Shown here: positions 4,326-12,385 of the stretch, piece by piece
Numbering within the stretch: position 1 is the stretch's first letter
Layout of the letters: the number at the start of each line of letters is the position of its first letter
Notes under the pieces: generated by a model
The model's database searches: none
What the model was told of the DNA's origin: nothing
The model's input: the letters and a program-made list of their open reading frames with translations, nothing else
Made by a program: the position numbers and the translations under genes
IMG/VR virus record: IMGVR_UViG_2974782369_000001
Span: 64,001-128,000 of that record
Strand: one strand, 5' to 3'
Origin: a virus
Taxonomy: Duplodnaviria > Caudoviricetes
Length of the DNA stretch: 64,000 nucleotides

Positions 4326-4430
4326 TAAGACCATCAGGGAAATGGTGGAGTTACTATGCTCCCCGCACCCTCAGCGGGGATATGAGAGACGGATTGGTAA
4401 CCCTGCCTAGTCTCGGTCAAGCGGCAGGGG
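4326..4430 (-). ncRNA. PhotoRC-II-like structured 5' leader of psbA
   Basis: Stems CCCUGCC/GGCAGGG (loop GAGAC can pair with downstream GUCUC), UCCCCGC/GCGGGGA and ACCAU/AUGGU just upstream of psbA; the position matches the known cyanophage motif. Confidence 0.75.
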
Positions 4431-4468
4431 CGGTAACAAAACTCAAAGGTCCGTTACATTTGTTTACC

Positions 4469-6871: not shown

Positions 6872-6953
6872 TACACATGAGAGGACTTGAACCTCCACAG
6901 ATTGCTCTACTGGAACCTAAACCCAGCGCGTCTACCAATTCCGCCACATGTGC
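6872..6953 (-). tRNA. tRNA-Leu(TAG)
   Basis: Acceptor GCACATG/CATGTGT, anticodon arm CTGGG-ttTAGgt-TCCAG, long variable arm, GGTTCAAGTCC T-arm; no encoded CCA. Confidence 0.95.
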
Positions 6954-6954
6954 G

Positions 6955-7270
6955 TGTGCTGGTTTTGACTGGACCAGAAACCAGGCGGGGTAACCCCATC
7001 CGCACCACCTGCTTTTGAGAGAAGCAGGAAACTCCGAGGGGTCGAAGACCCATCCCGACCAGGGTTGTTAACGTGTCTCCATCACGGGCATATTAGGGAT
7101 GACTCCACCAGTGTTTTTAACGTCTTTCCATGACGGGGCGGGGGCGCTAACCCCCCATGCACGCCACCAATTCTTTACAAGGAAAAATTGGAAACCTCGC
7201 GTCAACGAGTGTATAAACATCTCTCATGCGTTGAAAACCATCTAGTTTAAAGTCTATTGGCAAAGACTAG
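6955..7270 (-). ncRNA. Structured RNA, manA-like, built from repeated pseudoknot/hairpin modules upstream of tRNA-Leu
   Basis: ORF-free 310-nt region with three H-type pseudoknots, UGGYG motifs and two similar hairpin modules; family name from memory of tRNA-adjacent cyanophage RNAs. Confidence 0.6.
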
Positions 7271-8650: not shown

Positions 8651-8857
<207 letters not shown>

Positions 8858-8883: not shown

Positions 8884-8927
8884 ATTATAGCAGACCCTTC
8901 AGCAAGGGTCAAGGGGTGTGGTCAGTT
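8884..8927 (-). promoter_or_regulatory. Early promoter TTGACC-17-TATAAT with upstream AACTGACCAC element
   Basis: Direct sequence match. Confidence 0.75.
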
Positions 8928-9382
8928 GGAAAATAGTCCTTACGCATGTATCGACCGAGGATGTTACTGTTGTAATACGCTGGTGTCCCATCTGACATCG
9001 CCTCCGTTAATACATTGTTGATAAAAAGTTGACGGGTCTCTTCAAAGTTTGTGAGTCCCTTACTTTTATGTAGGCTCAAAATGTCTCGTTTGAAGACCAG
9101 ATTCCCGAACCTTTTTCTGTCATCAGATAATTCAGCACTGCTGCCGTAGTATTTTTTCCAGTCACTTTCACTCTTAACTCTCCTGCCACCACCTCTAGGC
9201 TTTCGTAACTGGTGGAAGTATTTTCTACCGATGTATCTTTTCCCAGTGAGTGTATTTGTAATGCAATAGACAAAACCGAAATAGTCGTTAATGTCCTCAG
9301 ATAGAAAAGGGTGTCCGTTAAAAATCCAGGGGTTTTCATAGTCAATTTCTTTTTCATTCGTATTCTCCGTCGTCATCTTCAA
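8909..9382 (-). CDS. GIY-YIG-like endonuclease-domain protein
   Basis: GFVYCITN...YIGRK, YYGSS, YYNSNI. Confidence 0.75.
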   Translation of the reverse strand: MKMTTENTNEKEIDYENPWIFNGHPFLSEDINDYFGFVYCITNTLTGKRYIGRKYFHQLRKPRGGGRRVKSESDWKKYYGSSAELSDDRKRFGNLVFKRDILSLHKSKGLTNFEETRQLFINNVLTEAMSDGTPAYYNSNILGRYMRKDYFPTDHTP

Positions 9383-10435: not shown

Positions 10436-10600
10436 TTATTTTTTATTATAGATTGGATCTATATTTAATAATTCATCAAAATATTCGCGCAAGTGAATTT
10501 TGTAACAGGACCAGTATGTTACCCCTCTATATTTGAGTTGGTAACAACTGGGTGGTCTGTTACTAGCATCCATATCATCAAAGTGATATCGATAATCCAT
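10436..10600 (-). CDS. 54-aa protein with a YRGVxY (DUF4278-like) motif
   Basis: MDYRYHFDDMDASNRPPSCYQLKYRGVTYWSCY...; TGATG coupling to the upstream gene. Confidence 0.65.
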   Translation of the reverse strand: MDYRYHFDDMDASNRPPSCYQLKYRGVTYWSCYKIHLREYFDELLNIDPIYNKK

Positions 10601-10764
10601 CACTTATTATAGGTGTGACCGCGATAGCAGAATGTGCCATGAGTTTCTTCAACACCTTGCTTGCACTCATATACTACACCACGATAAGCGGTGTGAGAAA
10701 TTTGTGCATCGTGCAGTGCTGCTGCTTTCTGGATCTGCTTCTTGATCAGAGTAAGTGTGTTCAT
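10600..10764 (-). CDS. DUF4278-like 54-aa peptide (two YRG motifs)
   Basis: MNTLTLIKKQIQKAAALHDAQISHTAYRGVVYECKQGVEETHGTFCYRGHTYNK; AGGAG SD; directly downstream of the riboswitch aptamer. Confidence 0.8.
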   Translation of the reverse strand: MNTLTLIKKQIQKAAALHDAQISHTAYRGVVYECKQGVEETHGTFCYRGHTYNK

Positions 10765-10798
10765 TTGTTTTCTCCTGAAATACTAAGGTTAGTTAAAA

Positions 10799-11012
10799 CC
10801 CGTTCCTTCAGTCGTTTGCGTCCTTGCTATCAAAACAATGGGGATCTGTATGATTAATCCAATGGATTAAGATATCAGATTTTTCAGCGGGAGTGAAAAG
10901 AGTTGTCTCTTGCAGTCCCTGCTTCAACCATTCATAGTCTTCACAGCGAAGATGATTCTCCACTGGGACATGACTAAAAAAGATGAGTGCTAATGATAAC
11001 ATAGGATGAACG
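10799..11012 (-). ncRNA. Glutamine-II (Downstream-peptide) riboswitch-like aptamer 2, split by an ORF in its P2 loop
   Basis: 5' half CGUUCA-UCCU-a-UGUUAUC (11012-10995); 3' half GAUAGCA-AGGA-CGCAAACGACUGAAGGAACGGG (10831-10799). Confidence 0.7.
10808..11002 (-). CDS. 64-aa protein nested inside the riboswitch aptamer
   Basis: GGAG SD 10 nt before the ATG; hydrophobic N-terminus, two Cys; the last codons (DAND-stop) are the conserved aptamer 3' strand. Confidence 0.7.
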   Translation of the reverse strand: MLSLALIFFSHVPVENHLRCEDYEWLKQGLQETTLFTPAEKSDILIHWINHTDPHCFDSKDAND

Positions 11013-11013
11013 C

Positions 11014-11068
11014 TCCGTTCCGCGACTTACTTGCGTCTCACCATCGGAAAGAGAGGGTGAGATGAACG
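11014..11068 (-). ncRNA. Glutamine-II (Downstream-peptide) riboswitch-like aptamer 1
   Basis: CGUUCA-UCUCACC-loop-GGUGAGA-CGCAAGUAAGUCGCGGAACGG; P1 CGUUC/GAACG and a 7-bp P2. Confidence 0.75.
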
Positions 11069-11074
11069 TAAATG

Positions 11075-11088
11075 GTAACTTTCGTTAC
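11075..11088. promoter_or_regulatory. NtcA-box-like palindrome GTA-N8-TAC
   Basis: GTAactttcgtTAC between the ATAAATA promoter and aptamer 1; could instead be a GAAA-tetraloop hairpin. Confidence 0.45.
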
Positions 11089-11093
11089 ACTTA

Positions 11094-11100
11094 TATTTAT
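11094..11100 (-). promoter_or_regulatory. Late promoter ATAAATA
   Basis: Direct match upstream of the riboswitch leader. Confidence 0.55.
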
Positions 11101-11109
11101 GAGAGACTA

Positions 11110-11283
11110 CTATTCTGAAGTAGTTTCGAGTGATACATTTTGCATCGCCTTCTTTTTCTCATTTGCCCAGAGCATCTCGGCAAAGGGATTACCGAATTGC
11201 TCTGTCTTGTCTAGTATAGCATCAAAGGCTGAATCCTGCAAACGTTCCTGCGGTGATGTCTTGTTTGATTCCTCCGACGACAT
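11110..11283 (-). CDS. Possible small protein overlapping the 3' end of nrdB (MSSEESNK...)
   Basis: ORF continues about 110 nt past the nrdB stop and fills the gap to the promoter. Confidence 0.35.
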   Translation of the reverse strand: MSSEESNKTSPQERLQDSAFDAILDKTEQFGNPFAEMLWANEKKKAMQNVSLETTSE

Positions 11284-12385
11284 AAGATTCGATCTCCGTT
11301 TCTTGTGGTGCATTCTGCTGACCCTTAGAGTTGAGCCAGTGCTCAGTCCAGGGCAGAGGATTATTCTTGGCAGGGATGTCGTAGATGGGTTTTAGACCAA
11401 TTGCTTTCATACGACGGTTAGCAATCCACTCAACATAGTTGTTGAGAAGACGATCATTAAGACCGATCATGCTACCATCACGGAAAAGATATTCTGCCCA
11501 ACACTTCTCTTCGTTGACAGTCCTCTTAAACATTTCAATCACATAGTCTTGCTCTTCGTTAGCAATCTGCTGCATTTCAGAATCATCACCTTCACGCCAC
11601 TTGTTAAGAATGTTTTGAGTGATAACAAGATGCTGATTTTCATCACGAGCAATCAGTGAGAGAATCTTTGCGCTACCTTCCATGAGTTTGTTTTCACCGA
11701 AAGCAAACGAGCAGGCGAAGGAAACATAGAAGCGAATACCCTCTAGAATATTCACATTAGCAACTGCACGATACAGTTTACGCTTCAACTCAATGCGCTC
11801 AAAGGTGCCAGCATAGTGACCTTCCTTTGCCAATTCCCACATAGTCCCACCATCATACTGATGAGCAGCTTCAATAAAACTGTCATAAGATTCGGTGACA
11901 GATGCAGCACGCTCTAGAATGTTTTCGTCGTCCAGGATGGTGTCAAACACTTCACTAGGATTGGGATAAACATTCTTGATGATGTGTGTATAAGAGCGAC
12001 TATGAATCATCTCCATAAACTCCCAGACAGTCATACATGCTTCTAACTCAGGGAGTGAGCAGTAAGGGATAAAAGCCATCCCAGGACCACGCCCTTGTAC
12101 AGAATCCAGCATGATCTGGTATTTAAGATTGCTGGTGAAGATGTGCTTCTGCTGCGGTGTAAGTTGTTGATAGTCACTTCGATCCTTTTGGAGGGAGACC
12201 TCCTCAGGTCTCCAGAAGTAACCAAGTTGTTGTTGAGTGAGCCTATCGAAGACAGGATACTTGTATGAATCATAGCGTTGGACGCTGAGGGGAGCACCAA
12301 AAAACATAGGTTGTTTCTTGGTGTCTACTTTCTTTTTGTTAAATACGGTCATTCCTTTTACTTCTTTAGACTTTACAGGACTCAC
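11222..12385 (-). CDS. nrdB: Ribonucleotide reductase class Ia beta subunit
   Basis: FWRPEEV, LDSVQG, EMIHSRSY, LEGIRFY, DENQH. Confidence 0.97.
   Translation of the reverse strand: MSPVKSKEVKGMTVFNKKKVDTKKQPMFFGAPLSVQRYDSYKYPVFDRLTQQQLGYFWRPEEVSLQKDRSDYQQLTPQQKHIFTSNLKYQIMLDSVQGRGPGMAFIPYCSLPELEACMTVWEFMEMIHSRSYTHIIKNVYPNPSEVFDTILDDENILERAASVTESYDSFIEAAHQYDGGTMWELAKEGHYAGTFERIELKRKLYRAVANVNILEGIRFYVSFACSFAFGENKLMEGSAKILSLIARDENQHLVITQNILNKWREGDDSEMQQIANEEQDYVIEMFKRTVNEEKCWAEYLFRDGSMIGLNDRLLNNYVEWIANRRMKAIGLKPIYDIPAKNNPLPWTEHWLNSKGQQNAPQETEIESYVVGGIKQDITAGTFAGFSL

Follow-up and report, generated by a model that had tools for sequence, protein, structure and literature searches.

A probable nested glutamine-sensing leader with an embedded gene precedes DUF4278-like peptides in a cyanomyovirus cassette

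Layout and distribution of the cassette

The window analyzed here, a 64,000-nucleotide (nt) stretch of DNA (positions 64,001 to 128,000 of IMG/VR virus record IMGVR_UViG_2974782369_000001), belongs to a T4-like cyanomyovirus whose nearest GenBank relative is Cyanophage S-RIM4 (98.2% identity over the locus and 96.7% over the surrounding 4 kb). Between nrdB (12385-11222; PF00268, E value 8.6e-55) and talC (10356-9700; PF00923, E value 1e-57), both on the minus strand, lies a cassette with all of its parts on that strand. Every part named in the original prediction, which was made from the sequence alone, was found: an ATAAATA box, a 14-nt palindrome, two units resembling glutamine aptamers, two overlapping open reading frames (ORFs) with YRG motifs, an intrinsic terminator (10417-10388; predicted 9-bp stem, GUAA loop, and U run), and talC. 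The list nevertheless overlooked a 64-codon ORF embedded in the leader (11002-10808). The best explanation as a whole, which we regard as probable while well short of secure, is that the cassette is a self-contained cyanomyovirus unit of promoter, 5' hairpin, sensor leader, three small genes, and terminator, and that its leader forms one glutamine riboswitch-type junction with a second aptamer-like junction inserted into one of its helices. The idea of a self-contained phage-borne unit, in which a glutamine riboswitch-type leader precedes DUF4278-like peptides as it does in the hosts (PMC6212724), has thus stood. More generally, the earlier observation was real but incomplete, and its interpretation holds in part: a phage leader of the glutamine-sensing type before DUF4278-like peptides is supported, and control by NtcA at the window copy and action on glutamine synthetase (GS) are not.

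The locus was matched by blastn in 412 phage records. The order of parts is identical in all 14 GenBank cyanomyoviruses retrieved, in which the genomic context varies: the cassette lies between nrdB and talC in eight, near the thymidylate synthase gene in three (S-RSM4, S-WAM2, and S-H9-1), after speD in S-RIM32, and after thioredoxin in S-SCSM1. The cassette therefore appears to move as a unit. Scans of viral contigs yielded at least 120 loci, at least 120 further loci with a different P3 helix (see below), and at least 595 relatives of the first YRG peptide. Judged by this recurrence in 14 of 14 GenBank phages and hundreds of viral contigs, the layout as a whole is far beyond chance.

Metatranscriptome contigs from four runs of four studies span 10449-11058, which indicates the presence of RNA only. 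Their summed word depth over this interval far exceeds that over the nrdB and talC flanks, but these depths sum relatives and cannot rank genes. No metatranscriptome contig covers 11059-11241, and, as such gaps prove nothing, neither a start site nor an expression level is drawn from them. Contigs that skip 10820-11007 probably come from relatives that lack the embedded ORF.

Promoter-like box, 5' hairpin, and NtcA

The only promoter-like element of the window leader is a box of the T4 late type, CATAAATA (11101-11094, with ATAAATA at 11100-11094). Boxes of the TATAAATA type stand at the equivalent place in 19 late-type relatives, and a promoter scan found no sigma-70-type promoter adjoining the window leader. 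Downstream of the box, the palindrome GTAACGAAAGTTAC (11088-11075) is predicted to fold into the hairpin GUAAC-GAAA-GUUAC and also fits the pattern GTA-N8-TAC, for which it had been proposed as a binding site for the nitrogen regulator NtcA. The window nonetheless contains 16 matches to this pattern (8.1 ± 2.7 expected), and a single copy is near chance. The full hairpin is present in every one of the 19 late-type leaders, with compensatory and G·U changes (stems GTAGC:GCTAC, GGTAGG:CCTACC, GTGATG:CATCAC, and GGCAGC:GTTGCC), whereas GTA-N8-TAC is kept in 13 and three retain the hairpin without any GTA or TAC. The motif of the window copy is thus not conserved for its own sake, nor does it precede a −10 box at constant spacing; the palindrome looks to us like a 5' RNA stem-loop.

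The relatives with sigma-70-type promoters present a different picture, and it is here, at the level of the family, that the NtcA proposal survives. GTA-N8-TAC is found in 149 of the 227 (3.06 expected), in most cases 8 nt ahead of the −35 box, and its inner positions are self-complementary in only 60 to 78 of the 149, as would suit a protein site. NtcA sites have been proposed in cyanomyoviruses (Sullivan et al. 2010, PMC3037559). On these grounds, and given the exact match and its retention in the majority of late-type leaders, the palindrome could itself be an NtcA operator at the transcription start, repressing at high 2-oxoglutarate as for gifB and perhaps coexisting with the RNA hairpin. 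We consider this rather unlikely for the window, in view of the near-chance frequency of the motif, the invariable hairpin, the GAAA loop within the palindrome, and a position downstream of the promoter-like box. The usual activating position of NtcA is not downstream of the promoter.

Sigma-70-type relatives (e.g., L041, L074, and L003) have a −35 box that overlaps CTAAATA or the late-type box CATAAATA, with the −10 box TATAAT in the loop of a covarying palindrome that directly precedes the aptamer. This arrangement points to a pair of promoters with a 5' hairpin in common.

Peptides A and B

The two YRG ORFs encode peptides of 54 amino acids each. Peptide A (10764-10600) carries YRGVVY and YRGHTY and belongs to phrog_545, the "Gp198" family, a name borne by the Protein Atlas clusters that it matches. 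Peptide B (10600-10436, counted from ATG) carries YRGVTY, and its start overlaps the stop of peptide A in TGATG; it has no match in PHROG and 22 related clusters, all unnamed. Peptide B is present in only a subset of cassettes, its place elsewhere being taken by a small hydrophobic peptide or by nothing. Another ORF of 30 codons (10578-10670, minus strand) runs in a different frame over the end of peptide A and is joined to peptide B in some relatives, giving longer gene calls; it is probably an effect of overlapping frames.

Membership of DUF4278, suggested earlier from the YRG motifs, holds for the family rather than for the window copies. The profile PF14105 scores peptide A at 20.6 bits and peptide B at 18.3 bits, both under the Pfam gathering cut-off of 25.3, whereas 66 of 72 members of the peptide A family match it at an E value of ≤0.01 (best, 1.7e-7), and a peptide A profile in turn retrieves PF14105 proteins at an E value of about 2e-5. 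We read peptide A as a distant, phage-specific DUF4278-like branch; both peptides would be phage-specific proteins of the DUF4278 type whose relation to the family is partial. A genome scan with the MNTL-type peptide A gave no copy in cyanobacteria and just three full-length copies, all in marine metagenome-assembled genomes labeled Euryarchaeota or Verrucomicrobiales and probably phage DNA.

The proposed action on GS fared less well. In Synechocystis, the GS inactivating factor IF17 is under the same pairing of riboswitch and DUF4278 gene (PMC6212724), and host peptides of the PMM1846 type have been put forward as possible inhibitors (PMC6316151). Together with the DUF4278 signal in the peptides, this would allow peptides A and B to be IF17-like inactivating factors that stop host GS at high glutamine. 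What the phage peptides have in common with IF17 is, however, the YRG-rich DUF4278 segment of its N terminus, which is reported to be dispensable for GS inactivation (PMC6316151). The C-terminal, GS-binding segment of IF17 and IF7, which carries the critical arginines according to the literature, appears to have no counterpart in the 54-amino-acid peptides, judged by that description and by their match to the DUF4278 part alone. The picocyanobacterial homologues are described as lacking the GS-binding part (PMC6212724, PMC6316151). A search for longer, fused forms yielded nothing beyond extended gene calls of these peptides, and a search of solved structures with the peptide A profile gave no match. 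A role of the peptides in GS control is therefore unsupported, and we regard it as distinctly unlikely that they are GS inactivators.

Architecture of the leader

At first sight the leader consists of two aptamer-like units in tandem, as the original prediction had it. Unit 1 (∼11071-11009) gives subthreshold Rfam matches to Glutamine-II (RF01704; 23.0 bits, E value 0.0031, cut-off 33) and to Glutamine (RF01739; 23.1 bits, E value 0.023, cut-off 35). Rfam returned no match for the second unit in the window, because its halves, CGTTCATCCTATG (11012-11000) and GGACGCAAACGACTGAAGGAACG (10823-10801), lie ∼180 nt apart and flank the 64-codon ORF. Each unit has a 5' strand CGUUC and a 3' strand GAACG, here called a (11068-11064) and b for unit 1 and a' and b' (10805-10801) for unit 2. 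These strands can pair within the units (a:b and a':b', side by side) or between them (a:b' and b:a', one nested in the other), and the two topologies were compared in an alignment of 123 distinct related leaders.

The nested pairing is the one that covaries. The discriminating pair of a:b' is CG in 115 leaders, UA in four, and UG in one, with one other, unpaired, combination; over the whole outer helix P1 (CGUUC:GAACG), 99.8% of cells are paired and four double changes occur. The outermost pair of b:a' is GC in 111 leaders, CG in 12, and unpaired in none. A change of G to C in b is invariably accompanied by C to G in a' and, separately, C to U in a by G to A in b'; the two pairs vary independently in L208, L212, and L188. 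When paired side by side, the same cells are unpaired in 12 (a:b) and 13 (a':b') of the 123 leaders, with no double change at the discriminating pairs.

The elements between these helices are consistent with the nested topology. The outer core contains the P2 hairpin (11062-11036; UCUCACC...GGUGAGA), with two-sided changes at all four pairs counted, and the junction strand CGCAAGUA (11035-11028), which forms the loop-E side, fits the RF01739 consensus aCGGAAGUA, and is kept in all parsed leaders. Helix P3 (AGUCG, 11027-11023, with CGACU, 10814-10810) connects the two units. In 318 parsed of 338 loci it occurs in 22 strand combinations with A-U, G-C, and G·U exchanges, its lengths of 5, 6, and 8 bp shifting jointly on both strands; in L214 it has 7 bp (GAGCAUA:UAUGCUC). 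The second loop-E strand, GAAG, adjoins b' (together 10809-10801), and the loop-E strands ACGNAAGUA and GAAG, with the P3 stem between them, are the same strands that are used, together with P3, in the Rfam alignment of relatives. Inside P3 lie the inner hairpin P1' (11020-11008), consisting of b (GAACG), the loop GAG, and a' (CGUUC), and the helix P2', whose 5' strand UCCUA (11006-11002) pairs across the ORF with AAGGA (10825-10821), with two-sided changes at five of five pairs. The 3' strand of P2' is followed by the inner junction strand CGCAAA, the two together spanning 10825-10815.

Four relatives without the embedded ORF are aligned by RF01739 itself in the nested manner, at 43.6, 42.9, 40.3, and 38.4 bits (cut-off 35), with the inner element in P3; the single units score below this alignment. 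The window leader falls under the cut-off because its ∼200-nt P3 insert exceeds the span of the model. Given the compensation at a:b' and b:a', the covariation of P3, and the nested alignment by RF01739, the leader is probably best described as one Glutamine-I (glnA-type) three-way junction, with P1 formed by a:b', P2, the loop-E strands, and P3. The outer P3 would be prolonged by a circularly permuted aptamer-like junction, with P1' formed by b:a' and capped by GAG, P2', and the strands ACGCAAA and CG.

Two independent glutamine aptamers standing side by side, with separate outputs and a long P2 loop in the second, would account for the linear order of the leader and for the subthreshold match of unit 1 by itself. 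Unit 2 taken alone in ORF-less relatives also reaches 30.9 bits under RF01739 (L051) and up to 34.0 bits under RF01704 (L044). Counting the units in tandem would moreover follow the literature, in which glutamine aptamers are frequently tandem (Weinberg 2010, PMC2864571; Sherlock 2022, PMC9481103) and which classes 157 doublets as pseudo-cooperative tandems (PMC9481103). The unpaired cells, the covarying P3 that ties the units together, and the higher nested scores of 38 to 44 bits make this arrangement very unlikely. The units were therefore not retained as a simple tandem: their pairs are compensated only when nested, their strands are swapped, and they enclose an extra gene. Assignment to Glutamine-II fails in addition on its score and on the a':b' pairing that it requires, since membership of that class calls for a pseudoknot in which CGUUC pairs with the GGAACG loop of a 3' hairpin.

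The nested leader departs in several respects from the systems that it resembles. With Glutamine-I (RF01739; the Synechocystis gifB/IF17 leader) it shares the core of CGUUCA, the P2 hairpin, ACG-N-AAGUA, P3, and GAAGGAACG, as well as a position ahead of a DUF4278-type gene and an expected translational ON response. It differs in the second, permuted aptamer-like junction on P3, the protein-coding gene in a helix loop, the phage location, and a score under the Rfam cut-off. Tandem glutamine riboswitches, for which a steeper dose response has been proposed (PMC2864571, PMC9481103), likewise have two aptamer-like units per leader, but the doublets in these accounts are treated as neighboring units, whereas here strands are exchanged and P3 is shared. 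Glutamine-II or Downstream-peptide leaders (yfr6, PMM1846; RF01704) occur in the host group of the phage and also precede a short DUF4278 peptide, with an NtcA motif reported at PMM1846 (PMC6316151); they are, in contrast, single units of the pseudoknot type, and the a':b' pairing that this would demand of the window is contradicted by covariation. The tandem glycine riboswitch also feeds one expression platform from two ligand cores per leader, but its aptamers are separate docking domains, whereas in the present leader one core interrupts a helix of the other and a gene lies within.

In the structural account of Glutamine-I (Huang 2019, PMC6698751), the three-way junction contains loop E, glutamine touches the initial pairs of P1 together with a G of the junction, and P3 points away sideways. 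Both cores retain these elements, and P3 could plausibly accommodate an insert without steric conflict.

A metagenome variant of the leader with the junction ACGGAAGTA (family L343 to L460) was found in at least 118 contigs. The layout is unchanged in the 100 that were parsed, most of which continue into YRG peptides. Its P3 contains two A·C oppositions, which some sequences repair to A-U or U-A. An insert of 125 to 150 nt occupies P2' in about half of the parsed contigs, and in most of the contigs peptides of the MSKVVYRGVEYDT type follow.

A gene within the aptamer

The embedded ORF (ORF64; 11002-10808, minus strand, 64 amino acids) belongs to phrog_13397, of unknown function (E value 1.9e-46). 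Its start codon lies within P2' and its stop codon, UGA, within the sensor core. P2' is a plain hairpin of 11 to 26 nt in seven relatives, and in most its loop carries an ORF, the insert lengths varying almost solely in multiples of three. Of 130 parsed relatives, 117 end at a common stop inside the junction strand (TGA in 83 and TAA in 34), and their proteins therefore end in ...DAND, a C terminus encoded by the aptamer. The inserts that share this frame and stop belong to different protein families; the commoner embedded version, of 53 to 56 amino acids, is phrog_504. Compared with 27 homologues, ORF64 differs 340, 168, and 554 times at codon positions 1, 2, and 3, respectively, and has 16 invariant residues, including two Cys and two Trp. 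By these signals ORF64 is coding, i.e., a real gene. That the 190-nt insert in P2' is instead structured or spacer RNA and ORF64 untranslated is extremely unlikely: although ORF64 lacks a Shine-Dalgarno sequence at a suitable distance, starts at the base of a helix, and has a low recognition value in the Atlas, the third-position skew, the multiples of three, the frame held to a common stop across differing protein families, the strong PHROG families, and the invariant residues all oppose that explanation.

A Protein Atlas search with ORF64 returned viral hypothetical clusters only. Common descent of the embedded ORFs was considered and is not established by hhalign: ORF64 and the short embedded family align with a probability of 65% (E value 6e-5), which derives partly from the aptamer-encoded C terminus, and ORF64 and the ORF that other phages carry in their outer P2 loop align with a probability of 2%. 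The latter ORF was seen in ∼44 contigs (L020, L025, L028, L040, and L041, among others), in which the outer P2 loop also encloses a gene of ∼66 amino acids (phrog_6471; MLALLLAFTLAHH..C..C) that starts in the 5' strand of P2 and stops immediately before GACGCAAG. Four further leaders (L089, L130, L199, and L218) have an insertion between b and a', within the P1' loop; that of L199 holds an ORF of 190 amino acids with an N terminus that resembles GIY-YIG by eye and gave no Pfam match at an E value of ≤0.01.

Expression platform and proposed switch

The sensor and peptide A appear to be linked by a helix that masks the ribosome binding site. The anti-Shine-Dalgarno (anti-SD) segment CUGAAG (10811-10806) overlaps the end of P3, the stop codon of ORF64, and GAAG. 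It can pair with 10780-10775 in the sequence that contains UUUCAG and the Shine-Dalgarno AGGAG of peptide A (10780-10772). In general form, CU(G/A)AAG is complementary to the (C/U)UU(C/U)AG leading into AGGAG. Among 110 aligned leaders, 99.4% of cells in this helix are paired, and its third, variable pair is GC in 49, AU in 31, GU in 29, and other in one. Among 236 distinct leaders, the A variant (40 leaders) always stands opposite U and never C, and the G variant opposite C in 92 and U in 56. The helix is present in the predicted folds of the window (−11.5 kcal/mol locally) and cannot form while the outer core has its P3, loop E, and P1 in place.

Both types of glutamine riboswitch are described as ON switches preceding DUF4278 genes (Klahn 2018, PMC6212724; for ON behavior, also PMC6698751), and T4-like cyanophages are reported to carry glutamine riboswitches (PMC9602691, PMC9964418). 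The anti-SD arrangement fits a glutamine-ON translational switch, and covariation backs the sequestering helix, which the folded sensor would release. The switch that we infer (ligand binding, direction, the influence of ORF64 translation, and any consequences for the host) would run as follows. Without glutamine, CUGAAG would pair with UUUCAG/AGGAG and block the access of ribosomes to peptide A. When glutamine is present, the outer core would fold and capture CUGAAG; strands a and b', P3, and the loop-E strands would then be engaged and UUUCAGGAG set free, so that peptides A and B could be translated, B following A by coupling. Binding of glutamine is expected to free the site because the anti-SD helix and the folded outer core cannot coexist. 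As ORF64 starts in P2' and stops in the anti-SD segment, translating it should also be incompatible with a folded sensor, and a ribosome terminating at its stop would itself open the peptide A site.

The full scheme joins several such steps, and we offer it tentatively, since as a conjunction it is unlikely to hold in every part. A strand-swapped double core with two glutamine sites would switch on the DUF4278 peptides steeply, and ribosomes translating ORF64 would have to melt this core and would terminate within the anti-SD segment. A single RNA would then yield ORF64 when glutamine is low and peptides A and B when it is high, either as opposites or in sequence, and in infected cells the peptides would influence how the host assimilates nitrogen.

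Several observations weigh against the nested sensor and its switch. The window's own leader scores under the Rfam cut-off in every reading (23 bits), as do its peptides under that of Pfam. What decides the topology is P3 and a single variable base pair per P1 helix, the other four P1 pairs being invariant and identical in both units, and the leaders are related, so that compensatory cells cannot be counted as independent. The inner junction has CAAA and CG in place of the loop-E strands AAGUA and GAAG, and a second glutamine site is accordingly putative. For a subgroup with CCGAAG and UCUGGAG (35 of 236 leaders), it is not evident that the same anti-SD helix forms. Finally, opening of the peptide A site by ribosomes that terminate at ORF64 would weaken control by glutamine, which is a tension in the logic of the scheme.

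The whole-leader fold additionally pairs strand a with AUGAAC at the start of peptide A, where AAC is the codon in 157 of 167 cases of Asn as second residue, compared with 64% at internal Asn codons. Because 105 of 272 leaders have a different peptide A start, this pairing is kept only as a weak idea.

Significance

Glutamine riboswitches, their link to DUF4278, and their presence in T4-like cyanophages are already known. As far as the literature search reaches, three features would be new: a sensor of two strand-exchanged cores with a common helix, a translated gene within an aptamer helix, and an anti-SD segment that also contains the stop codon of the embedded gene. No description of nested cores or of a gene inside a glutamine aptamer was found in the passages covered by that search. 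If the proposal is true, the cassette would be a compact natural example of a translation-gated riboswitch, and its architecture is experimentally tractable. Hundreds of viral contigs from the ocean and fresh water carry the cassette, and metatranscriptomes contain it as well; it may therefore be relevant to the sensing of host nitrogen status by abundant cyanophages.

Neighboring features of the window

S-RIM4 (L001 2243-3037) has an additional hypothetical gene of 795 nt between peptide B and talC, which the window lacks. Upstream of the cassette, an ORF of 67 amino acids (11110-11313, minus strand; phrog_12245, function unknown) overlaps the 3' end of nrdB and stops right before the promoter-like box. 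Directly downstream of talC, an ORF of 157 amino acids (8909-9382, minus strand) encodes a SegE-type GIY-YIG endonuclease domain (PF19835, E value 4e-53). Elsewhere on the minus strand of the window, a wcaG RNA (6944-7036; 65.1 bits), a PhotoRC-II RNA (4346-4441; 55.6 bits), and two tRNAs (8651-8724 and 6872-6953) exceed their Rfam cut-offs.

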